Source of the DNA: Thermoanaerobaculia bacterium
Lineage (GTDB): Bacteria > Acidobacteriota > Thermoanaerobaculia > Multivoradales > UBA5704
Reading direction: 5' to 3'
NCBI GenBank assembly: GCA_036497345.1
Contig: DASXJP010000663.1
Location: 1-53,715 of the forward strand
DNA length: 53,715 nt
The position numbers were made by a program, and so were the translations under genes. The notes under the pieces were generated by a model. The model made no database searches, was not told where the DNA came from, and saw only the letters and a list, made by a program, of their open reading frames with translations. This document shows positions 8,601 to 38,010 of this stretch, piece by piece. The stretch's first letter is position 1. Each line of letters opens with the position of its first letter.

Positions 8601-8676
<76 letters not shown>

Positions 8677-8706: not shown

Positions 8707-10545
8707 TCATTCGTCCGGCGGGACGATCAGCACCGACACCTCCGAGTCCGCCAGGATCTGCAGCGTGACGTCGTAGCGCAGGGAGCGCTCGCCCGGGCGG
8801 CGGACGTGGCGGCCGAGGACGATGAGGTCATAACCCCCTTCCCGGGCCTCGGCCAGGATGCCCTGCATGGCGGTGCGCGCCGGACGGACGGCGGAGCGGC
8901 TGGGCACCTCCAGCGCCCGCAGGGTGGCGAGGCCGGCGTTCAGGTGGGCGCTGACCCAGGGGGCGGCGGTGGCCCCCTCCCGGAGCACGTGGAGCAGGGT
9001 CACCTCGGCCCCGAGCCGCCGCGCGAGCCACCCTCCCACCCGCACGTCCGCCTTGCCCGGCTCGCCCACGGCCGTGCAGATGAGAATGCGCCGGAAGGTC
9101 TCCGGCCTCCCCTGCGACACCAGAAGGGGCGCCGGCAGGCTCTCCAGCAGGCCCATCAGGATCTCGACGCGCCCGCCTTCCGGGAATTGCAAGAGGGTGA
9201 AGTCGTAGAGGCTCTGCCGCTGCTCGGCGGTGATCTCGGCGGCCGTATCGCCCCGCCGCACCACCGGCTCGGCGTCGGGCACGCCTCCCGCCACGGCCTC
9301 CTCGGTCAGCTTCGCGCGCAGCGGCTCGACGCCGTCCGTGTCGCCGGTCACCCCGAGCAGGCAGACCTTGGCGTTGAGCGGTCCTTCGAGGGCCTGGACG
9401 AGCGGGAAGGGCGCCGGGCTCCCCTCGTCCGGCAGGTCGCAGACCAGGAGCCGCGGCTGGGGCGGCGCCAGGATGTGCCAGCCGCGCAGGCTCACCCAGA
9501 CCTCCGGCCCGTCCAGGTCCACCTCGGCGGGGAGGACGGCGTCGATCAGCAGCCCCTCCTCGCCATAGACCGAGGGGGCCACCTGCCGGGTGCCGGGGAT
9601 CGCAGGCATCCGCACCCGCACCCGCCGCAACGCGCCGAGGAAGCTCTGCTCGACGATCGTCCCCTGGCCCAGCAGACGCACCCCGCGCTCGGGAGGGCCG
9701 GCCGAGAGCTCCACCTGCTCGGGCCGGATCAGCACCCGCACCCGGGCGTCCTCCTCGTGCTCGACCTCGGGAGGGATGGGGAGCGCGAGCGGGCCGATCT
9801 GCGCCGCGCCGTCGCGCGCCCGGCCCACCAGCACGGTGCCGGCGCCCAGGAAGGTGGCGCCGAAGAGGGTGCGCGGCCGGGCGTAGAGAGCCTCGGGCTC
9901 GCCCACCTCCAGCAGCTCGCCGCGCTCCATGAGGCCGATGCGGTCGGCCAGCTCGAAGGCCTCCTCCTGGTCGTGGGTGACCAGGATGGCGGTGACGCCG
10001 AGCTGTTGCTGGATCTCCCGCAGGTTACGCCGGAGCTGCGAGCGGATCTTGACGTCGAGCGCCCCGAACGGCTCGTCGAGCAGCAGCACCGAAGGCTCGT
10101 GGACCAGGGCGCGGGCGAGCGCCACCCGCTGCTGCTGGCCTCCCGAGAGCTGGTGGGCGTAGCGGTTGCCGAAGCCGCCCAGGCCCACGCGGTCGAGCAG
10201 CTCCTCGCGTTTCCGGGCCCGCTCGGCCGGCGGCACCTTGCGGATCTTGAGGGGAAACTCGATGTTCTCTCCCACGCTCATGTGGCGGAAGATCGAGTAG
10301 TTCTGGAAGACGAAGCCGATCCCCCGCTTCTGGGGGGGCAGGCGGGTTACGTCCCGGTCGTGGAGCCAGATGCGTCCCCCGTCGGGCGCCGTGAGCCCGG
10401 CTACCATGCGCAGGATGGTGCTCTTGCCGCTGCCGCTGGCGCCCAGGAGGACGAACAGCTCGCCGTCCCGCACCTCCAGCGAGGTGGGCTTGACCACCGG
10501 CTGGCCGCCGAAGCTCTTCATCAGCCCTTCGAGGCGGATCGACAT
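8707..10545 (-). CDS. cysA: Sulfate/thiosulfate ABC transporter ATPase (CysA-like) fused to two universal-stress-protein (USP) domains
   Basis: Walker [10 protein letters not shown], signature LSGGQQQR, Walker [12 protein letters not shown] and a TOBE-like middle region. The C-terminal ~250 aa has two USP-like units (e.g. [11 protein letters not shown]...TLLHVL...YDLIVLGRH...SVLIVPP). Confidence 0.85.
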
Positions 10546-11361
10546 CTACTTCTTCGGCCCCCCGGAGTAGCGCAGCAGGAAGAAGAAGATGGCGAAGGAG
10601 AGCGCCGCCAGCACCGCCGCCACCGCGTTGGCCTCGGCCACGTGCCCCGCCTCGAACTGGGCGAAGATGTAGAGCGGTGCCGTCTGGGTGCGCAGCCGGA
10701 GGTTGCCGGAGACCATCACCGTGGCCCCGAACTCCCCCAGCGAGTGGGCGAAGGTGAGGAGGGTGCCGCTGAACAGGCCCCCCCGCAGCGCCGGCAGGAT
10801 CACGTAGCGGAAGGTCTGCCACTTGCCGGCGCCCAGCGTATAGGCCGCCTCCTCGTAGGTCACCTCCAGCTCGTCGAGCAGCGGCTTGACCGCCCCCAGC
10901 ATGTAGGGGAAGGTGACGAAGAGGTGGGCCAGGAGCACCCCCACGGGCGTGAACATCGGCTGCAACCCCAGCGGCTCCAGCAGCTTGCCGAAGAGGCCGA
11001 GCGGCCCCCAGAGCAGCAGCAGGGAGGTGCCCACGACCACGGTGGGGATCGCCACCGGCAGGTTGATCGCGATCGTCAGCGGCCGCTCGCCGGGGAAGCG
11101 GTGCTTGGAGAGCACGTAGGCCGCCCAGGTGCCGAGCACGGCGTTGATCGCCGCGGTGAGGAAGGCGATCAGCAGGCTGAAGCGGAGGGCGAACTGGGCG
11201 TCCTCATTGGTGAGCGCCTTCCAGAACGCCGCCGGCCCGCCTTTGAGGGCGAAGACGAAGACGGCCGCGATCGGCATCAGGATCAGCGGCAACAGGACGA
11301 GCACCAGCAGGCCGACCGGGACGCGGGCGCGCGGGCGCTGCCCCGGGGCGTTGCCGGTCAC
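10546..11361 (-). CDS. Sulfate ABC transporter permease (CysT/CysW family)
   Basis: Six-TM permease with EAA-like loop EEAAYTLGAGKWQTFRYVILP and FGATVMVSGN, typical of CysT/W. It abuts cysA. Confidence 0.85.
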   Translation of the reverse strand: MTGNAPGQRPRARVPVGLLVLVLLPLILMPIAAVFVFALKGGPAAFWKALTNEDAQFALRFSLLIAFLTAAINAVLGTWAAYVLSKHRFPGERPLTIAINLPVAIPTVVVGTSLLLLWGPLGLFGKLLEPLGLQPMFTPVGVLLAHLFVTFPYMLGAVKPLLDELEVTYEEAAYTLGAGKWQTFRYVILPALRGGLFSGTLLTFAHSLGEFGATVMVSGNLRLRTQTAPLYIFAQFEAGHVAEANAVAAVLAALSFAIFFFLLRYSGGPKK

Positions 11362-12410
11362 TTGCCGACCTCCCTCATCACCCGGTCCTTCCAGATCCCG
11401 TCCACGATCTCCTTCTTGACCCGGTCCCAGCCGCCGAAATCGCGGACGAGGAACGGGTCGCGGATCGTCCCGAAGTGGGGGTTCGCCCCGTTCAGCCGCT
11501 CGTCCACGCTGCGGAAGCCCCGCTGCACGAACAGCGCCTGCGCCGGCTCGCTCCAGAGGAAGGTGACCAGGGCGTCGATCAGGGGGCGCTCGGAAGGGGC
11601 GACGTTCTTGTCCACCACGACCAGCGTGTGCTCCGAGAGCACGGTGCTGGGAGGATAGACGATCTCCCCCGGTAGAGTGCCCCTCGCCGCGTCGCCGAGG
11701 ACGTCCTGCTCGTAGGTGACCAGCACGTCGCCGAAGCCGTTCTCGAACTGGGTGCGGGCGGCGCGCGCCGAGGCCGCCTGGGCGGCCACGTGGCGCCAGA
11801 CCCCGAGCAGGGCCGCCGTCCCGGCCTCCCGCTCGCGGCCCGGGGACCGCCGGGCGGCCGCGCCGTATTCGGCGAGGATCGCCCAGTTGGCGCCTCCCGA
11901 GGTCAGCGGGTCGGGGTGGACCACCTTCACCCCGGGCCGGGCGAGGTCGGCGAAGTCGTGGATCCCCAGAGGGTTCCCCTTGCGGACCACGAGCACGAAC
12001 GGCGTGCGGTTGACCACGCCGCCGTGCGGGAGCCGCCGCCAGGAGCCCGGGGTGACGACCCCCGCCTTGGCCAGCCGTCCGGCGTCGAGCTCCAGGGCGA
12101 GCAACGCCACCTGGGCCGGCACCCCGAGGGTGATCTGGTTGGTGATCGTGCCCGAGCCGGCGAAGGAGGTGATGAATTCGACGTGCTCGCCGGTCCGCGC
12201 CTGCCAGCGGCGGGCGAATTCGGGGAGCACGTCGCCGTTCATCGCCTCGCCGAGGATGCTGAAACCGTAGAAGACCACCGTGCGGGGGCGCGCCTCCCGC
12301 CCGGGCCTGGGGAGCCAGGGCCAGAGGGCGTAGAGCAGCAGGGCGGCGCCGCCGGCGAGGGCGAGCGCTCCCTGGAGGCGGTCGGCGAGGCGCTCGGGAT
12401 CGCGCGTCAT
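11358..12410 (-). CDS. sbp: Sulfate-binding protein (Sbp/CysP family), N-terminally anchored
   Basis: ATG 12410 gives MTRDPERL...ALALAGGAALLLYALW. Motifs GSGTITNQI, VHPDPLTSGGANWA and VLVTYEQDV. 4-nt overlap with the permease gene. Confidence 0.8.
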   Translation of the reverse strand: MTRDPERLADRLQGALALAGGAALLLYALWPWLPRPGREARPRTVVFYGFSILGEAMNGDVLPEFARRWQARTGEHVEFITSFAGSGTITNQITLGVPAQVALLALELDAGRLAKAGVVTPGSWRRLPHGGVVNRTPFVLVVRKGNPLGIHDFADLARPGVKVVHPDPLTSGGANWAILAEYGAAARRSPGREREAGTAALLGVWRHVAAQAASARAARTQFENGFGDVLVTYEQDVLGDAARGTLPGEIVYPPSTVLSEHTLVVVDKNVAPSERPLIDALVTFLWSEPAQALFVQRGFRSVDERLNGANPHFGTIRDPFLVRDFGGWDRVKKEIVDGIWKDRVMREVGK

Positions 12411-12610
12411 CGCGGGCAAGAGTACCCTGGAGAGCGGGTTTCCTTGAAACGCCAGGGCCCTTTGATTACACTCCCTGCGGGGATTCGAAAGCCAGGGTAG
12501 CGGGGATCCGCCGGAGGCCCGGGATCGGTCGATGGAACGCCTCGCCATCCAGGGCTCACCCGGCGTGTCCCCGATGCGCTAAAATTCGGGGATTCTTCCG
12601 GGAGAGCGCC

Positions 12611-13774: not shown

Positions 13775-15328
13775 GTGGGGATCTCCGGCAGCCTCAAGGA
13801 CGTCTCCGTCGCCGACGTGATGCAGTTCATCCACCTCGGCCGGCGGACGGGCACGCTCCTGCTCACCCGCGGCAATCAGAAGGCGATGATCGGCTTCCAC
13901 GGCGGCCGGCTGGTCTCGGCCCAGGCGCCGCGCACCCCCAAGCTGGGCGACCTGCTGATCTCCTCGGGGATGATCGACCGCGGCATCCTCGACAACGCCA
14001 TCCGCGCCCAGAACGAGGAGGTCGAGCGGCGCTCGCTGGGGCAGATCCTGGTCACCTCGGGCTCGATCGACGCCCAGGGGCTGCGCCAGGTGATCGCCGA
14101 GCAGATCGAGCAGGCGGTCTCCGAGGTGATGGTCTGGGACACCGGGACCTTCGAGTTCGCCATCGACGATCTGCGGCCGATCGACGACATCGCGCTCTAC
14201 CCGAGCGACGTGCTGCCGGACGCCGACATCAACACCCAGATGGTGCTGCTGGAGGCGGCGCGGATCTTCGACGAGCGCAACCGCGACGGCGCCGCGCCCG
14301 AGGCGCACCACGGCTCCTCCGAGGACGGGGACTCGACCCATCCGGCGCTGCTCGACACAGGGCCCGTCGCGCGCCCGGTGCTCCCGGCGGCCGAGCCGGA
14401 GCCCGAGGCGATCGCCCCGGCGCACGCGGCCGAGCGCCTGCGGCTGCAGATCGTCTCCGTGGACGTGCCGTTCGCCGAGAGCCTGGCCGACGCCCTGCAG
14501 CACGAGGTGGCGGGGACGGAGCTGGTCTCTCTGGAGGATGCCGGCAATCCCGAGCCCGGCGAGCCGCCGCCGATCGTAGTGATCGACCTGCGGCGGCGCA
14601 GCGTCGACCTGGAGGCGGCGGCGGCGGTGCGGCGCGCCCATTCCCGCGCCTCGTTCGTGGCCCTGGTCGACCCCGGCACGCCGTTCGCCCGCGTCTACGA
14701 GGCGGGGATGCTGGCGGCCCTGCCGGCCGAGGTGGAGGCGGTGGTCGCCTGCGTCGAGAACGTCATCGAGAGCCGGCGCGACCTGGTGCGCGGCGCGCCG
14801 CGGCCGGACATGAGGTCCGGGGTCGCCCGCCTGCGCCGGGTGTTCGGCGACCTGCGCTCGGGGCTGATCTCGGCCACCGTGGCGCTCAACCTGATGCACA
14901 TCATCTCGGAATCGGTGGAGCGGGCGGTGCTCTTCCTCGTCAAGCGCGACCACTTGGTGGCGCTGGGCGCCTTCGGCAGCGATTCCGCCGGCCGGCCGCT
15001 CGCCGAGGTGACGCGCGGCCTCAAGGTCCCGCTCAACCTCGGCAGCAGCCTCGCCCACAGCCTGGACACCGGCGAGGTGCAGAGCGTCGATTTCGACGAG
15101 GCGGAGCTCCCCGAGCCCTTCCGCTCCATGGTCGGTCCCCCGCGCAACGGCCAGGCGGTGATCTTCCCCGTGCTCGGCTCGCAGCGGGTGATCTCCGTCA
15201 TCTACACGGACAACGGCGACAACGAGAAGCCGATCGAGGACATCGACATCCTGGAGCTGGCCACGGCCCAGGTCGGCATGGCCTTCGAGAACGAGCTGCT
15301 GCGCCGTCAGATCTCGCAGGGCAAGTAG
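13775..15328 (+). CDS. DUF4388 (PATAN-like) - degenerate receiver-like - GAF-like protein
   Basis: GTG starts 1 nt after the preceding stop. N-terminus GSLKDVSVADVMQFIHLGRRTGTLLLTRGNQKAMIGFHGGRLVSA is the DUF4388 signature. The middle has IVVIDL. The C-terminal GAF-like block is VERAVLFLVKRDHLVALGAFG...VISVIYTDN. Confidence 0.75.
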   Translation: MGISGSLKDVSVADVMQFIHLGRRTGTLLLTRGNQKAMIGFHGGRLVSAQAPRTPKLGDLLISSGMIDRGILDNAIRAQNEEVERRSLGQILVTSGSIDAQGLRQVIAEQIEQAVSEVMVWDTGTFEFAIDDLRPIDDIALYPSDVLPDADINTQMVLLEAARIFDERNRDGAAPEAHHGSSEDGDSTHPALLDTGPVARPVLPAAEPEPEAIAPAHAAERLRLQIVSVDVPFAESLADALQHEVAGTELVSLEDAGNPEPGEPPPIVVIDLRRRSVDLEAAAAVRRAHSRASFVALVDPGTPFARVYEAGMLAALPAEVEAVVACVENVIESRRDLVRGAPRPDMRSGVARLRRVFGDLRSGLISATVALNLMHIISESVERAVLFLVKRDHLVALGAFGSDSAGRPLAEVTRGLKVPLNLGSSLAHSLDTGEVQSVDFDEAELPEPFRSMVGPPRNGQAVIFPVLGSQRVISVIYTDNGDNEKPIEDIDILELATAQVGMAFENELLRRQISQGK

Positions 15329-15331
15329 GGT

Positions 15332-16018
15332 CTACTGCTGGATTCCGGCGTAGGGCTGGGCCGTATAGCCGGGAGGCGGGTCGTAGGCGCCCGCCGGGGC
15401 GTCCTTGGTCTCGATCCCGACCAGCTCCTCGCGGGTCTTGAAGTGGCTGGTGCCCATGGTGACGTCCGCCTCCTGGAGCACGGGGAACCCTTCGATCTGG
15501 CCGAGCTTCTGGGCCCAGTCCGCCGAGCCCGGCTGGAGGGCGGCGATGCTGGCGGCCAGGCGGGTGAGGGCCTGGTGGGAGGCGACGTCCGGGCTCGCCC
15601 AGACCGTGGTGTCCAGGTGCAGGCCCGCCGGATTGGTGATGTCCACCCTGTATTTGCGGGCGCTCCAGCTCCCGATCTTCTTCGTCTCCCCCGTCGCCGT
15701 CACCTGGGCCTTCACCTGCATCTCCGGCGGAGCGCCGACCTTCCGGGCGTCGACGGGGAGGGGGAGCTCGCTGTAGGTCTTGTCCGCGTGGTTGACCACG
15801 TAGAGCTTGCCGCGGTCGAGCCGGAGGATGTAGCTGGTCTCCCCCTCGTCGCGCCGCAGCCGGTCTCCTTTCTCGCCGCCGATCCAGATACGGATCGGCT
15901 CGCTTTGCGACGGCGCGATCTTGAGCCCCTCGATGGAGCTGCGCACGGTCAGCAGCGTGTCGGCCAGGGCGGGAGCGGCGGTCAGGAGCAGCAAGGCGAA
16001 AACGGCGCGTCTGGGCAT
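15332..16018 (-). CDS. Secreted hypothetical protein
   Basis: ATG 16018. Signal peptide MPRRAVFALLLLTAAPALA and coding-like composition. Same strand as the efflux locus, 35 nt downstream of it. No family assigned. Confidence 0.6.
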   Translation of the reverse strand: MPRRAVFALLLLTAAPALADTLLTVRSSIEGLKIAPSQSEPIRIWIGGEKGDRLRRDEGETSYILRLDRGKLYVVNHADKTYSELPLPVDARKVGAPPEMQVKAQVTATGETKKIGSWSARKYRVDITNPAGLHLDTTVWASPDVASHQALTRLAASIAALQPGSADWAQKLGQIEGFPVLQEADVTMGTSHFKTREELVGIETKDAPAGAYDPPPGYTAQPYAGIQQ

Positions 16019-16053
16019 ACGGCGATCCTCGGAAGCGAATTGAGACAGGTAGC

Positions 16054-16518
16054 TTAGCGGTCGCTCCGCGGCTTCGCAAGGCGCACGTAGAGGAGCTTCT
16101 CGACCTCGGCGATCACCTCGCCGGCGTCGTCCAGGACCTCCACCCTGAAGGTGGGCTCGACCTTCCTCCCCGCGTCCGCGGCGGCGCGGATCTCCTCGAT
16201 CTCGACGAGCGGGATGTGGAAGGTGGCGTGGACGGTCCCCCGGCCGGGGCGGAGGAAGCGGATGGTGGCCGCCTTGTCCCAGACCACGTACCCCCGCCCC
16301 AGCGCGTCGGCCAGGATCAGCATGAAAAAGGGATCGCACATCGAGTAGAGCGAGCCGCCGAACTGGGTGCCCACGTAGTTGCGGGTCCACCGGCGGAGCT
16401 TCATCCGCACCGTGAACGTACGCAGGTCGGGGGAGGCTTTGACGCGGATGCCCGCGCCCAGGTAGGGCGGATAGAGGCTGAGCAGCCGCATCATCCAACG
16501 CCGCCGGGAGGAGGCCAT
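16054..16518 (-). CDS. DUF4442-like hot-dog/thioesterase-fold protein
   Basis: ATG 16518. LYPPYLGAGIRV...NYVGTQFGGSLYSMCDPFFMLIL...YVVWDKAATIRFLRPGRG matches my recollection of DUF4442 (YiiD C-terminal type). It starts 8 nt after the preceding stop. Confidence 0.6.
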   Translation of the reverse strand: MASSRRRWMMRLLSLYPPYLGAGIRVKASPDLRTFTVRMKLRRWTRNYVGTQFGGSLYSMCDPFFMLILADALGRGYVVWDKAATIRFLRPGRGTVHATFHIPLVEIEEIRAAADAGRKVEPTFRVEVLDDAGEVIAEVEKLLYVRLAKPRSDR

Positions 16519-16526
16519 GGGCGGGA

Positions 16527-20377
<3,851 letters not shown>

Positions 20378-20381
<4 letters not shown>

Positions 20382-23332
20382 TGGCGCGCCCGGCGGCTCC
20401 AGCGGTAGAGGACGGGGACGAGCAGCAGCGAGGCGAAGGTCGAGAGGCTCATGCCGCCGATCACCGCGAGCGCCAGGGAGCGCCGCAGCTCCACCCCCTC
20501 GCCGCCCAGGAGGGCCAGGGGGAGCATGCCGGCCACGGTCGCCAGGGTGGTCATCAGGATGGGCCGGTAGCGCTCGGCGCCCGCCTGGCGGACCGCCTCA
20601 TCCACCTTCAGACCTCCGCGGAGGTGATCCTCGATCCGGTGCACCAGCACGATGGCGTTGTTGACCACGATGCCCGCCAGCAGGATGAGCCCCAGGAACG
20701 AGAAGACGTTGAGCGTCTGCCCGGCGAGCGCCAGCAGCCCCAGCGCGCCGCCCAGGGCCACCGGCACCGTGGTCATCACCACCAGGGGCGTGACGAGCGA
20801 CTCGTAGAGGGCCGCCACGGTAAGGAAGACGAGGAGGAGCGAGAGGGAGAGCGCCAGCCGGAGCTGGCCGAAGGCCCGCCGCAGCTCCAGCGCCTGCCCG
20901 CCGGGGGCGACCTGCTCGTCCGCCGCCCGCGCCACGCCGCGCAGGAGCTCCTCCGGATCGCGGTTGCTCAAGGCCCCGTCGAAGGCCAGGCGCACGGCCG
21001 GCTGACCGTCCTCCCGTTCGAGCGCCGGGGGACGGGCTCCGGCTTCGAGCCGGGCCAGGGCGGCCAGAGGAAGCGCGCCCTTATCCGCGGCGGGCACCAC
21101 CGGCAGCAGCGCCGGGTCCTCCTGCACGGTGGGGCGGACCACCACGTCCGGCTCCACGCCGTCGATGCGGACGCGGCCGGCGGTCTGGTCGGCCAGCGCC
21201 TGGCGCACCTGCTCCTCCAGGCGGTCGCGGTCGGCGCCGAGGGCGGCCAGCCGGGGGACGTCCCAGGCGAGGAGGAGGGCGGCGCGGTCCTGATCGCGGC
21301 GGAGGCGGGCCTCGCGCAGCCCGGCCGCGCTCCGCAGCCGCTCCTCGGTCCGGCGGGCCAGGGCCGCGGCCCGCTCCGGCGTGGCGGCCGACGCCACTAC
21401 CTCCAGCCGCCGGCCGGCCTTCTCGATCGATTGCAGGAAGGCGCTGGGCCGGGGCTCCACCCACACCTCGACGCCGGGCAGGCGGGCCAGCTCGCTCCGC
21501 AGCCGCTTCCGCGCTAGGACCGCGTCCGCCGGATCGGCGAAGCGGAGCTCGATTTTCCCGGTTTCCTCCGCCTGCTCATCAGGGGATTGCCAAGCGATCC
21601 GACCGATCGGACGGATCCGACGGATCGATCGGATCACCTCGGCGGCCTTCGCCTCCACCATGGCCCCCAGCCGCCGCGCCGCCTCGGGCGCGAGATCGGG
21701 ATCGAGCCGGTAGCGCACCACCAGGTCCCGCGCCGCGGCGTCCGGCACCAGCTCGCGAGGGAGGACGGCCACCGCCAGCAGCGCCACGGCCGTGGCGGCC
21801 AGGGCTCCCAGCACCGGCAGGGCCGGCCGGGAGAGCGCGCCGTCGAGCAGGCGGAGATAGGCGGCGCGGCCCGGGGTCCACCCCCGCGCCACGCCGGCCC
21901 GCCGGTCGCGGGCGAGCACCGGGGTCACGGTCAGCGAGAAGAGGAGCGAGGCGGCGAGGGAGGCCACGATGGCGAACGCCTGGGCGCCGAAGAAGGCGCG
22001 GGCCAGTCCCTGGAGGTAGACCAAGGGGAGGAAGACCACGGCCGTGGTGAGGAAGCCCGCGATCACCGGCAGGGCGATCTGCCGCGTGCCGGCGATCTCC
22101 GGCTCGGCCTCCCCGCGGGCGCGGGCCGTCTCGATCGCTTCCAGCACCACGATCGAGCTGTCCACCAGCATGCCGGCGGCCAGGGCCAGGCCGGCCAGCG
22201 AGACCACGTCGAGCGGCACGCCGCAGAGGTGGAAGGCGGAGAAGGTGGCGAGCATCGAGGCCGGCACGGCGATCGCCAGCGCCAGCGTGGGGCGCCAGCG
22301 CCCCAGCAGCAGCCGGAGCACGGCGATCCCGAGGACCAGGCCGATCAGCGCCGCCAGCCCCAGCTCGCGCAGGGCCGCCACCACCTCCTGGCTGCGGTCC
22401 ACCGCCACCTGGACGCGCAGACCAGAGGCGGTCCGCCTCCCCAGCTCCGCGGCGCGCTCGCGCACCCGGGCGGCCAGGGCCACCGCGTTCGCCTCCGGAG
22501 CGCGGTAGACGCGCACCAGCGTCCCCTCCCGGCCGTCGAGGCGGAAGAAGGTGCCGTCCCGCACCTCCTCGATCGCCACGTCCGCCACGTCCCCCAGCAC
22601 GCTCTCACCCCCAGGGCCCTGGACGCGGAGGGCGCGCAGGGCGTCGAGCGACGGGGCGTCCTCCCGCACCAGCAGCGGGCGCACCGCCGCTCCCGCCCTG
22701 GCGCGGCCGGCGGCCACGCTCTCGCCCACCGGCTTCAGGCGGGCCACGAGGTCCGCGGGGGTGAGCCCGCGGGCGGCCAGGGCCGCGGCGCGCGGCCGGA
22801 CCACCGGATGGAGGGGCGCCAGCCCCAGCGTCTCGATCTTCCCCGCCCCCTCCAGCCGGGCCAGCTCCGGCACCAGCACCTCGCGGGTGAAGGCGGTCCG
22901 CCGTCCCGATTCACCGCCGAAGACGGCCACCTCGACGATCGGCTCGGAGTCCCCCGCCACCAGCTCCACGGCGAGCGTCACCCCCGGCGCTTCCAGGCCG
23001 GCGAGGCGGCGCTCGGCCTCGATCCGCAGCCGGTCGGGGTCGGTCTGCCACTCGCTCTCGACGCGCACGCGGGCGAAGCCGTCGCCGGTCGAGCTGCGCA
23101 CGGCGGTCACCCCGGGGACGGCCGCCAGCCGCTGCTCCAGCGGCCGGGTGACGCGCTCCAGCAGCTCCTCGCGGGCGCTTCCCGGCGCGGTGGCCGTGAT
23201 CGCCAGGCCGGGGCGCTCCAGGGAGGGGAGGAGCGAGACGGGGAGGCGGAGCAGGGAGAAGACCCCCAGCACCACCACCGTCAGGGCGCCCAGCAGCGTC
23301 GAGACCGGCCGCTCGATGGCGCGGCGGATCAC
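20378..23332 (-). CDS. RND efflux transporter permease (AcrB/CzcA superfamily)
   Basis: 984 aa. N-terminus IERPVSTLLGALTVVVLGVFSLLRLPVSLLP, TM4 GMLVDSSIVVLE, TM10 GIVVNNAIVLV. The GTG start overlaps the adaptor stop (GTGA). Confidence 0.9.
21596..21640. repeat. Five degenerate 9-bp tandem units, each starting with GATC
   Basis: GATCCGACC GATCGGACG GATCCGACG GATCGATCG GATCACCTC. In frame in the RND gene, this encodes EVI-RSI-RRI-RPI-GRI on the minus strand. Confidence 0.7.
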
Positions 23333-24393
23333 CGCTTCTTCTCCTTCTTCACCGAATCGTCGACCGCCTCCACCTTGGCGCCGTCGGTGAGGAGGCCGGC
23401 GCCGCTCACCACCACCTTGTCGCCGGCCGCCAGCCCCGAGACCACCTCGATCCGGCCGTCCGCCCGGCCGCCGGTGGTCACGGCCCGCCGCCGCGCCGTC
23501 CCCCCCTCCACCACGAACAGGGCGCTCCCCCCTTCCGAGATGACGAGCGCCTCCTCGGGCACGGTGATCGCGTCCGGCCGCGCGTCGAGCTCCACGTGCA
23601 CCTCCACCCCCTCGCCCGGCGCCGGCAGGCCGGCTCCCTCCGTCACCTCGGCCACCACCGGCGCGGTGCCTCCCGTCTCCAGCATGGGGGAGATCTCACG
23701 GACCATCCCACGGCCCGCCGCGCCGGGCGTGCCGGGGAGGACGAAGCGCACCCCCAGGCCCGGATGGAGCCGTCCGCGGTCCCCGGCCGCCGCCTTCGCC
23801 TCGACCCGCGGCGGCCCGCCGGCGGCCACGCGGGCGAGCACGGCGCCGGCCTGGACCTCCCCCTCGGGCGGGAGCTGCCGCTCGACGACCAGCCAGCCCG
23901 CCACCGGCGAGCGGAGCTCCAGGGTCCCCTGCTTCTGCCGGGCCGCCTCCAGGCGCTGGGCGGCGAGATCGGCTTCGGCCTTGTAGGTGGCGAGCGTCGC
24001 CGCCGGCACGACCCCGGCGTCGAAGGCCTTCTGATAGCGCGTCAGGTCCGAGGTGGCCGCCGCCAGACGGAGCTTGGCCTCGGCCACGCCCGACTCCGTG
24101 TCGGTATTGATCAGCCGGGCCAGCACCTCACCAGCCCGGACCTGGACGCCGGAGGAGAGCCCGTTGCGGAACCGCTCCGGGTAGCGCAGCCGTCCGGAGG
24201 ACGGCAGCACCACCTCGGCCTCCTTGGCCGGGCGCACCAAGCCGAGCAGCACGAGCGTGGGTTGGAACGGTGCCCGCGCGGCCTTCTCGATCTTCACCGG
24301 CAGGGGCGGTGGATCGTCGGGGATCTCCGCCTCCGGACGGCAGGCGGCGAGGGCGATAAGGAGAAGCGCGAACGCCCCCGCCCGAACCCTCAC
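23329..24393 (-). CDS. Efflux periplasmic adaptor (membrane fusion protein, HlyD/RND-MFP family), lipoprotein
   Basis: GTG 24393 gives MRVRAGAFALLLIALAAC (lipobox LAAC). Lipoyl/coiled-coil/beta-barrel pattern (EVLARL...ATYKAEADLAAQRLEAARQ...LRSPVAGW). The longer track ORF start translates REP DNA. Confidence 0.8.
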   Translation of the reverse strand: MRVRAGAFALLLIALAACRPEAEIPDDPPPLPVKIEKAARAPFQPTLVLLGLVRPAKEAEVVLPSSGRLRYPERFRNGLSSGVQVRAGEVLARLINTDTESGVAEAKLRLAAATSDLTRYQKAFDAGVVPAATLATYKAEADLAAQRLEAARQKQGTLELRSPVAGWLVVERQLPPEGEVQAGAVLARVAAGGPPRVEAKAAAGDRGRLHPGLGVRFVLPGTPGAAGRGMVREISPMLETGGTAPVVAEVTEGAGLPAPGEGVEVHVELDARPDAITVPEEALVISEGGSALFVVEGGTARRRAVTTGGRADGRIEVVSGLAAGDKVVVSGAGLLTDGAKVEAVDDSVKKEKKR

Positions 24394-24444
24394 CCCCCGA
24401 CCCCCTCTCCCGTCCCCTCCCCCCTCCCGCCCCGGGAGAGGGGG
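24388..24444. repeat. REP-like element copy (CCTCACCC box + hairpin)
   Basis: CCTCACCC...CCCCCTCTCCC-N22-GGGAGAGGGGG. Confidence 0.65.
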
Positions 24445-24488
24445 AGAAAACGAGATCGTTTTGTTGATCCACGGTCTCTGGGCGTGTT

Positions 24489-24544
24489 CCCCCTCTCCCG
24501 GTGAGGGACGGCGGGAGGGGACGGGAGAGGGGTAGGGGTGAGGG
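24489..24544. repeat. REP-like element copy, inverted relative to 24388-24444
   Basis: CCCCCTCTCCC-N23-GGGAGAGGGG...GGGTGAGGG. The loop is the reverse complement of the family loop CCCTCCCGCCGTCC. Confidence 0.65.
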
Positions 24545-24566
24545 TTCATACGTCCTCCGTCAGCGA

Positions 24567-25247
24567 TCACGAGAGCATCCGCTCCGGCCGGCGCAGGCGG
24601 CGGCGGGCGTAGAGGTAGAAGAGGGCCGCTCCCACGGCGAGGATGGCCAGGCTGCGCAGCCAGGGGAGCGACTCCTCGGCTCCGGGCAGGAACCGTCCGT
24701 AGTGCGCTGTCAGGCGCTGCGGAATGGGACTGGCGAAAAACCACTGGCTCATCAGGGCCACGGTCACCGCCGAGGCCAGCCACACCGCCCCCGAGGTGTG
24801 CAGGCGGACTGCCCAGAAGAGGGACACGGTCGCCAGGAAGAGGCTGATCACCACGATCTGGATCAGCGGCGCGAGCAGCGGGAACCCGAAATCGCTGAGG
24901 AACCAGCCGAGGATCATCACCAGAGACCCCTGGAGGGCGGTCACGGCGCAGACCGCCCCGGCCCGCCGCACGAAGTAGGCCTCGGCGGCCGGCGCCGAGA
25001 GGGCCAGGTCCAGGCAGCCGGCCCGGCGCTCCAGGTCTACCAGCCCGGCCAGGGCGGGAAGGGCCAAGAGCAGCGAGGGGAGGAGGAAGGCGTAGCGGTA
25101 GATGTCCCCCGCGTCCCCCTCCGATTCGAGGAGCATCTGGAGCAGCAGGTAGCCCACCACCAGCGCGTCGATCACCGCGAACAGGACGAGCCGGCGGCCC
25201 AGGAGCAGGCTCAGCGAGAGGCGCATGGAGCGGAGGAGACGCCTCAT
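24567..25247 (-). CDS. Small polytopic membrane protein, probable ABC-2-type permease partner
   Basis: ATG 25247 overlaps the upstream stop (ATGA). About six hydrophobic helices and no soluble domain. Confidence 0.6.
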   Translation of the reverse strand: MRRLLRSMRLSLSLLLGRRLVLFAVIDALVVGYLLLQMLLESEGDAGDIYRYAFLLPSLLLALPALAGLVDLERRAGCLDLALSAPAAEAYFVRRAGAVCAVTALQGSLVMILGWFLSDFGFPLLAPLIQIVVISLFLATVSLFWAVRLHTSGAVWLASAVTVALMSQWFFASPIPQRLTAHYGRFLPGAEESLPWLRSLAILAVGAALFYLYARRRLRRPERMLS

Positions 25248-27997
25248 TTGCCCCCCTGGAAGAAGACCCGGTCCCCCGGCGCCGCGCTGGGCACCAGCCG
25301 GTGGCACTCCTTGTCCGGATCGAGCAGCACGGCCTGGGGCTTACGGATGGTGTGGAGGTCGAAGGCGCCGTCTTTCTCCGGCTCGGCCCGCACCATCGCC
25401 GACACCGGCCCGAGGTCGGTGGTCAGCACGACCTTGCAGAGCGCCTCGGCGTCTCCCCGGTTGTGCATCCTCCCGGTGGCGTGCCAGCCGTCGGCCGTCT
25501 GGCGGAGCTCCACCCCTTCGAGCACCGGCTCCGCCAGGCCCCCCTTCACGAGGTTCTCCTCGAGGAAGCGGGAGAGGTCCGGGCCGCCGTGGCGGGCGAG
25601 GACGTCCAGGAGCTCCCGGCGGGTACAGGGCCGCGCGCCGCCGCGGGAGAGGAGCTCCTCGACGGCCTGGCGCAGCGCCTCCTCCCCCATGAGATGGCGC
25701 AGACCCGCGAGCAGCGCCGGGAAACGGCTGTGCCAGTAGATGGTGCCGTAGAAGTCCTCCGGCGGCGGTACGCGGACGATGCCCCCCTGTCCGGGCCGGA
25801 GCCCCTCCACCGCGGCGCCGCTCTCCGGGCCCAGGCCGAGCCGCTGGAGCGCGAGGTTGCGGAAGAGGAGCCGGAAGAGCACCGAGTCCTCCGGCGCCAG
25901 CGGCCGGCGGCTGGTGAGCTGCGCGCCGACCATCTCGGCCAGGAAGCTCTCCGGCTTCAAAACCTTGTTCTTCTGGATCAGGTCCCCTTCGCTGAGCAGC
26001 ACCAGGTTCCCCTCGGGCGTGAAGGCGAGGTCGTTCGGGCCGCGCCAGCGGGTCGCCATGGCCACGCCGATGGGGTCGGGGTCGAAGACCCGGTTCCCGG
26101 ACCACTCCAGCACCGCCATCCGCCCCAGGCCTTCCAGCCCGGGCCAGGCCTCCTCGGCCTTGCGGGCGCTGCCGTTGAAGAACCCCAGGTGCAGCTCGCC
26201 GATGCGAGCGTGCGAGGGGTAGACCGCCACCGTCGTGCCGGTCTCCGTGGACGGCAGCGTGACGTAGCGTCCCCCCACCACGGCGAGCTCCGTCAGGGGG
26301 ATCCGGCAATCGCCCGCGAGGTGCCCGGAGCGCGTCGTGTCGCCACAACTGTCGGCCAGCAGCACCCCGGGGGGGCCGGTGAGCGAGACCGAGAGGTCCG
26401 CCTGCGGGGTGAAGGATTCCTGCAGCACGTTGTGCTGGTCGTCGAGCTTCCAGGCCTGGTAGCGGGGGATGGGGGAGAGCTCGGAGGTGACCACGCGGAT
26501 CTGGCGCGCCGAGAGCGCCGGCGCCTCATAGCTGGTGGAGAGGTCGAGCAGATCCCGGAAGAACCGCGGGTGCAGGTGGTCGCCGAAGCGTTTGTAGAAG
26601 GCGGGATACTCGAAGATCTGGGGAGAGATCCGGGCCTCCCTGGGCGCTCCCGCAAGGCGGAACCGGATCTCGCGCCGGCCTCCGGGCGGGATGGGCGGCA
26701 CGAGATCCACCGCGAGGCGGTCCCAGCGGCGGGAGAGCGCCAGTGTCCCCTCGGCGGGCCGGGCCTCCGCGATCCGCAGGGCCGGATTGAGCTCGAACGC
26801 CAGGTGGCTTTGCGGCGACGGGCCGGTGTTCCTCATCTCGGCCGTCACCGTCAGGTCCACCCGCCGGTCCGGACCGAGCGTCCCCGCCACCCGCCAGCGG
26901 CCGGGCGTCAGGTCCCCCGGCGTGGGCGTGGGCCCCTCCGAAGCCTCGGCGTCGAACCGCGCCTTGCCGATCGCCTCGTAGTAGCGCACCCGCCCGAGCG
27001 CCAGGGCCGCGATGCCGGCGGTCAGCAGCAGCAGGGCGGTCAGGGCGAGCAGATCCGCGCGCGCCGGCCGTGGATCGGGCGTGTAGCGCTCCCGCAGGCG
27101 CGCCAGAATAAGGAGGAAGGTCCGCAGGGGGTGATCCGGCCGGATCCGCCAGGGGCGGACGTCCGGCCGGGTCCGCCGCAGGTAGCGCGTGGCGAGGCCG
27201 AGCAGGACGGCGGCCAGGGCCAGCGGCACGACCGCCCGGGCCAGCAGCGGCCCCGCGGCGATCCTCACGTCGAGGGGGAGCTCGCTCACCGCCAGCGGGA
27301 ACGGCAGCGAGAGGAAGGTGTCGTGCGTGGGATCGCTGGCCACCCGGGCGATCGACCGCGGCAGGTACCCCGTGTCGAGCCACTCCAGGGGAGCGCTCAG
27401 GCGGATTCCCAGGCGGCCGAGCAGGGAATTGATCAGCATGGGCACGATCAGGAGAACGAAGGCGGCGAGCAGGAAGGCGTTGATCGCCCCGCCGGCGATC
27501 GTCCCCACGGCGACCGCCAGGGCGGAGAAGGTCAGCGCGACCGGCACCACGTGCAGCAGCCAGGGGACCGCGAAGGCGGAAGGGTGGACCAGGTCCGGGC
27601 CGTTCGCCGCCACCGCCAGCCCGGCCGCCACGGCCACGGGAACGGCCGTCAGGGGGAGCAGGAGCGCCTGGAGGGAGAGCCAGCGCCGCAGCAGATAGCC
27701 CGCGCTGGACATCCCGGTCAGCGACACGGTCGACCAGGCCCCTTCGTCCTGCTCACGGGTGATGGCGTCGAGGGAGAGCAGGAAGGCGGCCACGGCGGTC
27801 AGCACGGGGAGGATCTCGAAGCTCTCGGCCGCGTAGGTGGAGGAGCCGATCACCGACAGGGACTGCTCCCGCCGCACCCAGGTCAGCACAGCGGGGCCCG
27901 CCCCCAGGGCCGCGTAGAGCGCGGCGATCACCCGAAAGCGGAGCGATCTCGCCTGCGTCCGCAGCTCGTGGGCGGTGAAGGCGGCGAGGAGCCTCAC
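25244..27997 (-). CDS. ABC-2-type permease fused to an M1-aminopeptidase-like domain lacking the zinc motif
   Basis: GTG 27997 overlaps the ATPase stop (GTGA). The N-terminal ~330 aa are polytopic. The remainder resembles aminopeptidase-N beta and catalytic domains. No HExxH occurs anywhere in the 917 aa, and the expected site reads FLAEMVGAQL. Confidence 0.7.
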   Translation of the reverse strand: MRLLAAFTAHELRTQARSLRFRVIAALYAALGAGPAVLTWVRREQSLSVIGSSTYAAESFEILPVLTAVAAFLLSLDAITREQDEGAWSTVSLTGMSSAGYLLRRWLSLQALLLPLTAVPVAVAAGLAVAANGPDLVHPSAFAVPWLLHVVPVALTFSALAVAVGTIAGGAINAFLLAAFVLLIVPMLINSLLGRLGIRLSAPLEWLDTGYLPRSIARVASDPTHDTFLSLPFPLAVSELPLDVRIAAGPLLARAVVPLALAAVLLGLATRYLRRTRPDVRPWRIRPDHPLRTFLLILARLRERYTPDPRPARADLLALTALLLLTAGIAALALGRVRYYEAIGKARFDAEASEGPTPTPGDLTPGRWRVAGTLGPDRRVDLTVTAEMRNTGPSPQSHLAFELNPALRIAEARPAEGTLALSRRWDRLAVDLVPPIPPGGRREIRFRLAGAPREARISPQIFEYPAFYKRFGDHLHPRFFRDLLDLSTSYEAPALSARQIRVVTSELSPIPRYQAWKLDDQHNVLQESFTPQADLSVSLTGPPGVLLADSCGDTTRSGHLAGDCRIPLTELAVVGGRYVTLPSTETGTTVAVYPSHARIGELHLGFFNGSARKAEEAWPGLEGLGRMAVLEWSGNRVFDPDPIGVAMATRWRGPNDLAFTPEGNLVLLSEGDLIQKNKVLKPESFLAEMVGAQLTSRRPLAPEDSVLFRLLFRNLALQRLGLGPESGAAVEGLRPGQGGIVRVPPPEDFYGTIYWHSRFPALLAGLRHLMGEEALRQAVEELLSRGGARPCTRRELLDVLARHGGPDLSRFLEENLVKGGLAEPVLEGVELRQTADGWHATGRMHNRGDAEALCKVVLTTDLGPVSAMVRAEPEKDGAFDLHTIRKPQAVLLDPDKECHRLVPSAAPGDRVFFQGGK

Positions 27998-28899
27998 GCG
28001 GCATCCTCCTCGGGCTCGTCCGGCGGCGTCTCGACCCCCTGAACGGCGAGGAAGGCGGCGTAGGACTCCTCCAGCGTCGGCCGCCGGGGCGTGCCGCCGG
28101 GCACCGGAGACTCGCTGTAGACCACCCGCTCGATGCCCCCCTGACGGTCGGTCCGGTGAGTCACCTCCACGGCGCCGGGGATCAGGGGCTCCCCCGCGGG
28201 CACCTGCCAGAGCCGTCCGGCGGCCCGGCGCAGCAGCTCCGTGGGCGCGCCGTCGAAGAGGAGGCGGCCGCCGGCGATCACCCCCAGCCGCGGGCAGGTC
28301 GCCTCCACGTCCTCCACGATGTGGGTGGAGAGCAGCACGGTGGTGCTGGCGGCCACGTCCGTGATCAGGTTGCGGAAGCGGATGCGCTCCTCCGGATCGA
28401 GGCCGGCCGTAGGCTCGTCCACCACCACCAGCCGGGGGGAGTGGACGAGCGCCTGGGCGATCCCCAGCCGCCGCTTCATGCCTCCCGAGTACTCGCCCGC
28501 CCGCCGGTCCGCCGCCCGCTCCAGGCTCACCGCCTCCAGCAGCTCCGCCACCCGGCGGCGCAGCGCGGCGCGGCCGAGCGGCACCTCGCGCAGCCGGGCG
28601 CAGTGGAGCAGGTACTCCCGCCCCGTGAGATGGCCGATCGGATGGAAGTCCTGGGGGAGGAAGCCGATCCGCCGCCGGATCGCCGCCCGCGCCCGCGCCG
28701 ACGAGGCGTCCAGCCTGTCGTAGACCCGCCGTCCCGACGTGGGCTCCAGCCCCAGCACCAGGATCGAGAGGAGCGTCGTCTTGCCCGCTCCGTTGTGGCC
28801 GAGCAGGCCGAACATCCCCTCGTCCAGCCGCAGCGAGACCCCCTTGAGAGCCTCCAGGCCGTCCGCGTAGATCTTGGTGATCCCCTCCAGCTCGATCAT
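27994..28899 (-). CDS. ABC transporter ATP-binding protein (ABC-2/DrrA-like subfamily)
   Basis: GHNGAGKTT, FLPQD, YSGGMKRR, LVVVDEPTAGLD and LSTHIVEDV. SD GGGAGGAG upstream of the ATG. Confidence 0.9.
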   Translation of the reverse strand: MIELEGITKIYADGLEALKGVSLRLDEGMFGLLGHNGAGKTTLLSILVLGLEPTSGRRVYDRLDASSARARAAIRRRIGFLPQDFHPIGHLTGREYLLHCARLREVPLGRAALRRRVAELLEAVSLERAADRRAGEYSGGMKRRLGIAQALVHSPRLVVVDEPTAGLDPEERIRFRNLITDVAASTTVLLSTHIVEDVEATCPRLGVIAGGRLLFDGAPTELLRRAAGRLWQVPAGEPLIPGAVEVTHRTDRQGGIERVVYSESPVPGGTPRRPTLEESYAAFLAVQGVETPPDEPEEDAA

Positions 28900-29072
28900 C
28901 GAGGCAAAGCTCCTCCCAGGGGATGCCGGATGGCGTCCCGCGCTTCAGCGCTCCTGCCGTTGTCTACGGTTAGTGTACTACGAGTGTCACACAGTTGGGG
29001 AGAGATCGCCTGGGATCAATTCCCATAGGATTACACCCATCTTTGCCATTTGGGTCCGCCTGCCCTCCGAAA

Positions 29073-29122
29073 CCTCACCCCTGTCCCCTCTCCCATCGCC
29101 CTCCCGCCGTCCGGGAGAGGGG
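29073..29122. repeat. REP-like element copy (CCTCACCC box + hairpin)
   Basis: CCTCACCC-CTGT-CCCCTCTCCC-ATCGCCCTCCCGCCGTCC-GGGAGAGGGG, upstream of the efflux locus. Confidence 0.65.
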
Positions 29123-29156
29123 AACCTGGCTGGGGCGATGGAGCCTACGGAGACGC

Positions 29157-29522
29157 TCACGGCTGGGTCCGCCTATCCCAGACTCCCTTTCGTTCACGCA
29201 GCCACCGGTTGACCCGGCGCGCGGGGATGTCGAGGATGAGCTGCCAGAACCGGAGCTGCGGCGGCGAGAGCCCGCGCCCCTCGTGCCGCTCGATCCATTG
29301 CCGGATCGCCTCGTCGCCGGCCCGGGTCCGGAGCCATTTCACGGTCTCCCAGGGGCCGGAGGCCAGGATGCGGCCCATGATCTGCTCTTGATCGCGGTCC
29401 CAGCGGAGAGAGCGGGTGGAGGTATCCCAGAAAAGAGCCTTGACGGAAGCCGGAAGAGCGTCCGGCTTCGAGGCCGCTCGCCTGTCTTCCGATTTGCCCG
29501 CGCCCGCCATGAGTGCCTTCAT
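29157..29522 (-). CDS. Small conserved hypothetical protein
   Basis: C-terminal 121 aa of track ORF 29157..31682. ALFWDTS...LRWDRDQEQIMGRILASGPWETVKWL...LSPPQLRFW resembles a widespread uncharacterised small-protein family (possibly DUF6922; uncertain recall). The upstream part of the ORF is antisense to the DUF1800 gene. Confidence 0.5.
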   Translation of the reverse strand: MKALMAGAGKSEDRRAASKPDALPASVKALFWDTSTRSLRWDRDQEQIMGRILASGPWETVKWLRTRAGDEAIRQWIERHEGRGLSPPQLRFWQLILDIPARRVNRWLRERKGVWDRRTQP

Positions 29523-37910: not shown

Positions 37911-38010
37911 GGAAGCGCTCGGGGGCTGGTGCCTCCTGCGGTCTTCAAAACCGTTGTCCGGCGCCGGTTGCGGCGTCGGGGGTGGGTTCGATTCCCATGC
38001 GCTTCCGCCA
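37911..38010 (+). tRNA. selC: tRNA-Sec (anticodon UCA)
   Basis: 8-bp acceptor GGAAGCGC/GCGCTTCC, 6-bp D stem GGGGGC/GCCTCC with 4-nt loop TGGT, anticodon loop CTTCAAA, long variable arm, T arm GTGGG-TTCGATT-CCCAT, discriminator G and CCA. The ends are identical to E. coli selC (GGAAG...CTTCCGCCA). TAGAAT -10-like box at 37897-37902. Confidence 0.88.

Follow-up and report, generated by a model that had tools for sequence, protein, structure and literature searches.

A conserved six-gene cassette of Thermoanaerobaculia with an RND-like protein fused to an ABC ATPase: a candidate composite envelope export machine

Transporters of the resistance-nodulation-division (RND) type are, to our knowledge, driven by ion gradients by definition and in every studied case, and ATP-binding cassette (ABC) transporters are driven by ATP. 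A stretch of 53,715 nucleotides of the Thermoanaerobaculia contig DASXJP010000663.1 (hereafter the window, 53.7 kb in length) raises the question of whether this rule holds everywhere. It carries a gene for an RND-like protein that ends in a complete ABC ATPase, and this gene lies in a cluster that also encodes a second RND protein, a single adaptor and the parts of a putative ABC-2 type transporter. What is this fusion, how far is its neighborhood conserved, and what kind of machine could it belong to? Our reading is that the six genes at 16527-28899 form a single operon, passed on vertically within Thermoanaerobaculia (Acidobacteriota), and that together they build one composite envelope export machine, in which an ATP-coupled RND-like subunit would stand beside a partner RND; we regard this joint reading as evenly poised between right and wrong. 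The finding is a new arrangement of known modules, while an ATP- or dual-energised RND pump would be categorically new. If true, it would contradict the textbook view of RND proteins as secondary transporters and would add a new class to the envelope exporters.

The RND-like protein fused to an ABC ATPase

The fusion gene at 16527-20381, on the minus strand like all genes of the cassette, is an uninterrupted open reading frame (ORF) of 1284 amino acids, in which the ACR_tran family matches residues 8-293 (65 bits, against a cutoff of 28) and ABC_tran matches residues 1011-1156 (E 6.5e-34). The RND-like module, recognized by ACR_tran, hhalign and Foldseek, comprises residues 1-975 (17457-20381), and the ABC ATPase or nucleotide-binding domain (NBD) comprises residues ~993-1284 (16527-17405 with the stop codon). 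They are joined, after the twelfth transmembrane (TM) helix, by an Arg-rich linker of ~25 residues with a conserved PP.W motif. The same PF00873+PF00005 architecture is found in ~105 homologous protein clusters, from 94% down to 38% identity; those carrying a source name come from Thermoanaerobaculia or Acidobacteriota metagenome-assembled genomes (MAGs) in every case, and the architecture is present on chromosome-level records of 7-8.8 Mb as well. A phmmer search with the RND-like part alone (residues 1-990) against 1.84 billion representative proteins gave 84 matches at E<=1e-30, and every match covering the whole query is 1230-1434 residues long. ABC_tran was detected in all six full-length or near-full-length matches that were scanned, including the most divergent at 29-33% identity. 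The shorter matches are fragments, and beyond an E of about 1e-15 there follow ordinary RNDs of ~1040 residues, which align over the N-terminal 400 residues only. The only candidate for an unfused RND-like module in this search was a protein of 997 residues (P0276), which ends at a contig end. Because the full-length relatives of the RND-like part all have a length that includes the NBD, and those scanned carry ABC_tran, the NBD appears from these sequences to be a defining feature of a distinct RND clade. The RND-NBD fusion recognized in the initial annotation is real: a single ORF, in ~105 clusters, with ABC_tran in every full-length relative scanned.

By hydropathy, residues 1-975 contain 12 TM helices in a 1+5 / 1+5 arrangement, with two large periplasmic loops. 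The module aligns by hhalign with the partner RND over 904 columns (probability 100, E 6e-56). An AlphaFold2 (AF2) model of residues 85-1284 (pLDDT 80.7, with a pTM of 0.62 that gives no confidence on the placement of the NBD) is matched by Foldseek to MtrD, AcrB, AdeB, OqxB and CusA at E about 1e-28 over ~1000 columns. Sequence and model together predict a complete RND fold for the membrane and periplasmic part of the fusion.

The residues expected of a proton pump are a different matter. In every RND protein studied, the central acidic residue has proved essential (PMC8277102). At the position of AcrB D407, the fusion has P382 (in 'LLPLA'), and at the position of K940 it again has Pro (in 'ALALPSA'), as judged by hhalign with the partner RND. 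The AcrB-type titratable residues (D407, D408, K940) were sought in the RND part of the fusion and none was found; its conserved charged residues lie at helix ends and in loops only, and no conserved mid-helix acidic residue is left. The cytoplasmic TM4-5 and TM10-11 loops contain the conserved R387 and Y903-R904. The RND half of the fusion has, to judge from these alignments, lost its proton-relay residues.

The partner RND (20378-23332, minus strand, 984 residues) has an AcrB-type architecture, with ACR_tran at E 5e-155 over residues 1-977 and matches to OqxB, MexB, AcrB and MdtB in the Protein Data Bank (PDB). It keeps D391 of TM4 (equivalent to D407) and, in TM11, R923 (R971) and T928 (T978), each in 49/49 orthologues. 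The position of D408 (residue 392) is Ser in 28 and Asn in 21 of them, and that of K940 (N891) is Asn in all 49. Against the NCBIfam RND_permease model, the partner RND scores 445 bits for a cutoff of 1250. It had been described as a canonical RND, which is true of its fold and its Pfam family but not of its relay, where the equivalents of AcrB D408 and K940 are missing. Proton coupling by this protein is plausible from the residues that it keeps, though not of the AcrB-triad type.

The two RND proteins also differ in where they are conserved, as measured by the mean pairwise identity across 25 genomes. For the partner RND, this is 70.7% in the transmembrane domain (TMD) and 53.9% in the periplasmic part; for the fusion, it is 47.5% in the TMD, 44.6% in the periplasmic part and 72.6% in the NBD. 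The membrane domain of the fusion, poorly conserved and rich in Ala and Leu, has lost the added constraint that marks the TMD of the partner RND, and no part of the fusion is better conserved than its NBD.

Every ATPase motif of the fused NBD (Walker A, Q-loop, signature, Walker B D-E and H-loop) is invariant in the 54-87 sequences compared, which reach down to 36-39% identity. The same holds for 36 orthologues of the free ABC ATPase encoded at the head of the cassette (27994-28899, minus strand, 301 residues, ABC_tran E 3e-27), and both NBDs score above the ABC_tran cutoff. The latter is an ABC-2-type NBD of the DrrA/NodI/GldA/NosF-like kind with a C-terminal extension of ~70 residues, and its best NCBIfam match is a drrA subfamily, below cutoff. 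The profile of the fused NBD matches the NBDs of ABCA3, ABCA4 and ABCA1 as well as NosF, which is its nearest bacterial solved structure (E 4e-43), and its neighbors in NCBIfam are the DrrA, GldA and NodI models. The free and fused NBDs are 44% identical over 288 residues with the C-terminal extension included, which bears out the earlier view that they belong to one subfamily and share similar extensions. Mirror-tree partial correlations between seven modules in the 25 genomes gave 0.73 for the RND and the fusion TMD, 0.66 for the large permease and the adaptor, and 0.61 for the free and fused NBDs; these values were rejected as evidence of contacts, since the pairs coincide with rate classes and paralogy.

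What makes the protein worth attention is that an RND and an ABC module are covalently joined, that the RND proton relay is apparently lost, and that purifying selection has kept this state throughout a class-level lineage of bacteria widespread in soil and sediment.

A six-gene cassette and its neighbors

Eight minus-strand ORFs were read between 15332 and 28899, with a high third-position guanine-cytosine (GC) content in their frames; the overall GC content of the window is about 70-75%. In gene order, the junctions read off the sequence are 4-nt overlaps of GTGA, ATGA, GTGA and ATGA, interrupted by a spacer of 173 nt, and are followed by gaps of 8 nt (fusion gene to DUF4442 gene) and 35 nt (DUF4442 to DUF4412 gene). 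The coordinates, overlaps and spacer of the initial annotation proved right wherever they were checked. In the window, the cluster is flanked by divergent DUF1800/DUF1501 genes on one side and by a DUF4388 gene on the other. A scan of 15000-29300 for promoter consensus sequences found no promoter-like site, with terminator-like sites at chance level, and is uninformative on operon structure.

How much of this cluster is a unit was judged from related genomes. A genome scan, with one genome per species, returned 80 related loci, which come from Thermoanaerobaculia, Holophagales-labelled or other Acidobacteriota MAGs only and include some chromosome-level records of 5.9-8.8 Mb. The proteins of the window were compared with these loci by tblastn, and the 48 loci with enough upstream flank were scored. 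The order free NBD, large permease, small permease, adaptor, RND and RND-NBD fusion is kept on one strand in 47/48, at fusion-protein identities from 88% down to 36%, and the small permease is present between the large permease and the adaptor in all syntenic loci. Genes were called in two of the distant loci; there, the six genes overlap or lie only 3-60 nt apart, and unrelated housekeeping genes flank them. The flanking genes vary from locus to locus around the cassette. The ABC and RND halves are therefore not accidentally adjacent, a possibility for which a check of synteny had been advised at the outset. The exception among the scored loci (L041, 5515-13951) has the fusion gene but none of the five partner genes ahead of it, for which a rearrangement or a chimeric MAG contig may be the reason. 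The genes found upstream of the fusion in this locus encode a MASE1/PAS histidine kinase and a DUF885 protein, the latter matching only the C-terminal half of its profile.

The last two genes of the cluster do not belong to the unit. They encode a DUF4442 hot-dog-fold protein (16054-16518, minus strand, E 6.5e-22) and a secreted DUF4412 protein (15332-16018, minus strand, E 3e-13, signal peptide MPRRAVFALLLLTAAPALA); DUF4442 and the secretion of the last protein are as first described. The DUF4442 gene is seen only where the fusion is ~52% identical or more and is absent from the distant clade. The distribution of DUF4412 is almost identical, and this gene travels with the divergent DUF4388 gene, likewise in the closer clade only. 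In several loci, these neighbors are displaced from the cassette by 1.6-6.5 kb, as DUF4442 is in L010, L011, L012, L027 and L062. With DUF4442 and DUF4412 limited to the closer clade and sometimes displaced, the conserved unit is the six genes at 16527-28899 and not eight; the two were ruled out as core components by that distribution, and the 13.5-kb eight-gene unit proposed at first has to be shortened. The hint of a lipid or acyl-linked substrate, which had been drawn from the thioesterase fold, finds no comparative support, as DUF4442 lies outside the conserved core.

The ABC-2 half of the cassette consists of the free ATPase and two permeases. The large permease (25244-27997, minus strand, 917 residues) has six TM helices in residues 1-270 and a seventh at 316-334, followed by ~580 periplasmic residues. 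Its N-terminus matches ABC2_membrane_2 weakly, below threshold (18.7 bits, E 1e-3, cutoff 27.2). The AF2 model of the protein (pLDDT 88.3, pTM 0.83) is matched by Foldseek at residues ~360-900 to the M1 aminopeptidases ERAP1, ERAP2, IRAP and APN (E 1e-14, ~630 columns, ~10% identity). The M1-like character proposed for this protein thus stands at the level of the fold and fails at the level of sequence, where HEXXH, GXMEN and a Pfam signal are all wanting: Peptidase_M1 gave no match even at E<=10. An active M1 peptidase was ruled out, as neither the HEXXH-(18)-E zinc site nor the GXMEN motif was found in the large permease. H596, H603 and E616 are kept in 45/46, 37/46 and 30/46 of its homologues, respectively, and form neither the motif nor a substitute triad. 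From model and sequence, the periplasmic domain is best described as a predicted catalytically dead M1 fold, a pseudo-peptidase. Searches of Pfam, NCBIfam and PDB profiles, and a homologue search with a profile of 48 sequences, placed the large permease with nothing other than the clade of the cassette itself.

The small permease (24567-25247, minus strand, 226 residues) starts in an ATGA overlap with the stop of the preceding gene. It shows six hydrophobic segments by hydropathy and is read as a 6-TM ABC-2-like permease; no Pfam or NCBIfam family was found for it. Its 'ERRAG..L..S.P' motif after TM2 aligns with 'REQDEG' of the large permease, a weak match with an hhalign probability of 6.6% in which the two permeases have 'ER.G' in common.

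The adaptor (23329-24393, minus strand, 354 residues) scores 144.9 bits against RND_mfp TIGR01730, above the cutoff of 94.9, and also matches HlyD_3 and HlyD_D23. Its N-terminus, VRVRAGAFALLLIALAAC, contains the lipobox LAAC, and the protein is the periplasmic adaptor lipoprotein that it had been taken for. In sequence, it matches MexJ, a MexC-like adaptor, MacA, ZneB and AcrA, with the MexJ alignment covering residues 102-347, and it can be classed on these matches as a membrane-fusion protein (MFP) of the RND/MacA type. It is the single RND_mfp gene of the cassette, as had been noted. Equally in line with the first description, a TolC-like gene is missing: no OEP/TolC family match was found by Pfam or NCBIfam in any large ORF of the window, and no outer-membrane factor was found beside the cassette in the loci of two distant relatives. 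Such a factor may be encoded elsewhere in the genome; the acrAB operon of E. coli likewise has no outer-membrane-factor gene.

The 173-nt spacer at 24394-24566 separates the small permease from the adaptor. It contains two inverted copies of a hairpin unit of ~50 nt, framed by perfect 13-nt terminal inverted repeats, GAACCCTCACCCC and GGGGTGAGGGTTC, of which the left arm overlaps the GTG start of the adaptor gene. The whole element lies at 24384-24547 and is given no strand. As RNA of the transcribed strand, it would fold into one long hairpin (-145 kcal/mol, z -7.8). No further copy was found elsewhere in the window. Because copies of it occur in related genomes, at the small permease-adaptor junction as well as in other places, it has the sequence features of a mobile palindrome similar to repetitive extragenic palindromes (REP) or miniature inverted-repeat transposable elements (MITE). 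The two REP copies that had been said to fill the spacer were found as two inverted hairpin units, and the term REP-like is reasonable. In distant relatives without the palindrome, the gap between small permease and adaptor is 11-30 nt.

The palindrome was also seen in frame inside the RND-NBD gene of relatives, at 11320-11487 in L001 and at about 11330-11480 in L004, L005, L008, L017, L023, L028 and L034. It falls there in the variable cytoplasmic loop between TM6 and TM7 and is translated as '...NPHPWPLSRPLPPSLTGRGERTT...PPLPVREGGRGRERGPGGEGSG...', and from such in-frame copies it follows that the mobile palindrome is tolerated as coding sequence. At this spot (about 18990-19050), the fusion gene of the window itself reads 'PSPHPWPLSRPGRE', which may be a footprint of the element or its target.

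A composite export machine and its rivals

How could the six proteins work together? In the machine that we propose, an RND pair would be formed by the partner RND, with its TM4 Asp kept, and the RND-fold paralogue with its C-terminal ABC ATPase, and both would share the one lipoprotein adaptor. This pair is proposed by analogy with MdtABC, and the two paralogues would form a heteromer as in MdtBC. The free ATPase and the two permeases would make up a NosFY-like ABC-2 module belonging to the same machine or pathway, whose predicted dead M1-fold domain would face the periplasm and probably serve in binding or hand-over. The conformational change of the RND-like subunit would be driven not by a flux of protons but by the fused NBD as it binds and hydrolyses ATP. 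For this, the fused NBD would need a dimer partner, either its free paralogue or another fused NBD; the NBDs may combine as free-fused pairs, as fused-fused pairs in a 2:1 heterotrimer or as free-free pairs. The movement would pass via the membrane helices to the periplasmic porter domains, a MacB-style mechanotransmission on an RND scaffold. Substrate would be picked up from the periplasm or the inner membrane, and the outer-membrane factor, if docked by the adaptor, would be encoded elsewhere. That the cassette is so strictly conserved by vertical descent, and beside housekeeping genes, speaks for an endogenous substrate, an envelope component or a peptide, more than for drugs. Should ATP indeed drive the RND scaffold, the cassette would serve as a natural experiment on the coupling of energy input to the movements of RND porter domains, and as a new blueprint for tripartite export. 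In its strongest form, the proposal is a pump energised by both the proton motive force (PMF) and ATP, the first ATP-driven transporter of RND fold, with a pair of fused and free NBDs joining an RND pump to an ABC-2 transporter; this stronger version we put forward tentatively, with doubt outweighing belief.

A second RND-NBD fusion, differently built, was seen in metagenome sequence (P0106, L081:1-5144), and its position beside an ABC-2-like permease was counted as support for a composite machine. Its N-terminus is cut by the contig end, and among metagenome contigs one close relative, also incomplete, was found (L086). P0106 has a strong ACR_tran match, with 'LVDNS' in TM4 and 'VNP' in TM10, and its RND part shares the pattern of the partner RND: the equivalents of D407, R971 and T978 are kept, TM10 has Asn, and there is no second TM4 Asp. 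The first strand of its NBD ('IEARYLSKVYG') lies ~210 residues before Walker A, an insert of that length with several hydrophobic segments. A 240-residue ABC-2-like permease follows, and a divergent MacB-type operon adjoins.

Several points weigh against a single ATP-coupled machine. Its subunit contacts, its stoichiometry and the pairing of its NBDs are ones that we infer, and the AF2 model of the fusion leaves the NBD without a confident position. We know of no coupling helix for an NBD in an RND TMD. RND pumps of this type are trimeric and NBDs act as dimers, a mismatch in geometry. The PMF coupling of the partner RND is itself uncertain, because it has neither the TM10 Lys nor the second TM4 Asp. 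In the window, the 164-nt hairpin element between the halves could decouple their expression, the halves could be separate pumps in one pathway, and L041 has the fusion gene without its five companions.

The most serious competing explanation is that there are two machines, an ABC-2 transporter made of a homodimer of the free NBD with the two permeases, and an RND tripartite pump, made of the adaptor and an RND/RND-like heteromer, in which the fused NBDs pair with each other; they would be inherited together through sequential action on one substrate, for example from the cytoplasm or inner leaflet to the periplasm and then outside, without forming a physical complex. The ABC-2 half, with its putative permeases, has all parts that a standard ABC-2 transporter would need, and the RND half resembles MdtABC in having one adaptor and two RND paralogues. 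Translational coupling is found within each half and not across the small permease-adaptor junction, and it is exactly at this junction that the large hairpin element of the window sits. Against such a division stand the gene order, which is invariant over deep divergence with the halves only 11-30 nt apart in distant relatives, the single adaptor for both halves, and the fact that, of the paralogues found, the one closest to the fused NBD is the operon's own free NBD, at 44% identity with the C-terminal extension included; none of these is decisive, and we consider two separate machines unlikely while giving the idea real weight. A further explanation leaves the pump intact and takes the motor away from the fused NBD. 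The RND-like subunit would then be a passive member of a heterotrimer driven by the PMF, with a structural or substrate-selecting role like that of MdtC in MdtBC, and the NBD would be a regulatory, gating or assembly switch, or a tether of the pump to the ABC-2 transporter. The partner RND, with its TM4 Asp and strongly conserved TMD, could supply all the energy, and a poorly conserved, Ala/Leu-rich fusion TMD is what would be expected of an anchor. However, the NBD is better conserved than the rest of the protein, and none of its catalytic motifs, the Walker B Glu and the H-loop His among them, varies in 54-87 sequences. Such purifying selection on hydrolysis is expected for a motor, yet it is compatible with an ATP-dependent switch too, and we judge a non-motor role to be improbable. 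Least credible is an ordinary multidrug-efflux neighborhood or an artefact, that is, chance adjacency of the genes, or a frameshift or misassembly behind the fused ORF. Sequences derived from MAGs can be chimeric, and L041 shows the fusion gene without its partners. However, the ORF is continuous with uniform codon bias, ~105 independent clusters and chromosome-level assemblies carry the fusion, all full-length relatives found in the library of 1.84 billion proteins are fused, and synteny holds in 47/48 loci. Frameshift or misassembly and accidental adjacency are refuted by these clusters, chromosome-level records, search and synteny, and the artefact retains a vanishingly small probability.

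Heterotrimeric HAE-1 (hydrophobe/amphiphile efflux-1) pumps such as MdtBC have been documented (PMC8277102). The cassette follows the same gene grammar as systems of the MdtABC/MuxABC type, namely adaptor, RND and RND paralogue, with overlapping stops and starts and with the full AcrB-type fold in both proteins. It differs from MdtABC in that the second paralogue has neither the TM4 Asp nor the TM10 Lys and carries a 300-residue ABC ATPase, in that the first paralogue is without the TM10 Lys and the second TM4 Asp, and in having a putative ABC-2 transporter within the conserved operon. The RND part of the cassette matches AcrAB-TolC and HAE-1 pumps in fold, topology and type of adaptor; unlike AcrB, the partner RND has only part of the D407/D408/K940 triad, and the fusion has none of it.

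For MacB, ATP is described as driving a periplasmic conformational change by mechanotransmission and not transport across the inner membrane (PMC8277102). The proposed machine would share this logic with MacAB-TolC, where a cytoplasmic ATPase likewise acts on a membrane protein with large periplasmic domains and an adaptor of the MacA/RND type is used. In contrast to MacB, the scaffold here is an RND with 12 TM helices and porter-type loops, and the NBD is C-terminal and ABC-2/ABCA-like instead of N-terminal. No match to FtsX or MacB_PCD was found by Pfam or NCBIfam in any of the six cassette proteins.

The ABC-2 half resembles NosFY or YbhFSR. As in NosDFY, the fused NBD is near NosF, the large permease is a weak match to ABC2_membrane_2 (a NosY-like family), and a periplasmic domain is attached to the permease; unlike in NosDFY, this domain has an M1-peptidase fold and is fused to the permease, in place of the NosD beta-helix. 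In E. coli, ybhGFSR encodes an ABC-2 transporter together with an MFP adaptor (YbhG), and we know of no RND partner for the Nos or Ybh systems. With the M1 aminopeptidases (ERAP1, ERAP2, IRAP, APN), the large permease shares a predicted multi-domain fold over residues ~360-900. Unlike them, it has ~10% identity, no zinc site or GXMEN, and a domain anchored to an ABC-2 permease.

Across the curated equivalog models for ABC-2 and RND proteins, the cassette scores below cutoff for all. Homologues of the fusion and of the large permease carry only the source names 'efflux RND transporter permease subunit', 'ABC-2 type transport system ATP-binding protein' and 'hypothetical protein'. A search of the literature in full text on RND-ABC fusions, Thermoanaerobaculia transporters and ABC-2/M1 fusions found no description of such a fusion or cassette. 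Even if the six proteins were to form two cooperating pumps, the six-gene cassette, the pseudo-M1 domain on an ABC-2 permease and the RND subfamily without the TM10 Lys would be undescribed.

Other features of the window

Outside the cassette, the window contains a tRNA-Sec gene at 37911-38010 (72.7 bits, anticodon TCA), which implies selenoprotein synthesis in this acidobacterium, as well as a tRNA-Ala gene (GGC) at 8601-8676 and the 3' part of a 5S rRNA at 1-93. Beside the tRNA-Sec gene, at 38-40 kb, the GC content dips to 0.646, against about 0.70-0.75 elsewhere. On the plus strand, 43534-45096 encodes a protein of 520 residues with a TIR_2 domain (E 5e-11), possibly of defence or signalling function.

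An unrelated ABC system lies on the other side of the cassette. The minus-strand gene at 8707-10545 encodes a CysA-like ABC ATPase (ABC_tran E 1e-35) fused to a C-terminal universal stress protein (Usp) domain (E 2e-13), and it adjoins a binding protein of the SBP_bac_11 family at 11358-12578. In close relatives, a homologue of this ABC-Usp gene is found ~6 kb downstream of the cassette, where it was seen as NBD matches of 33%.

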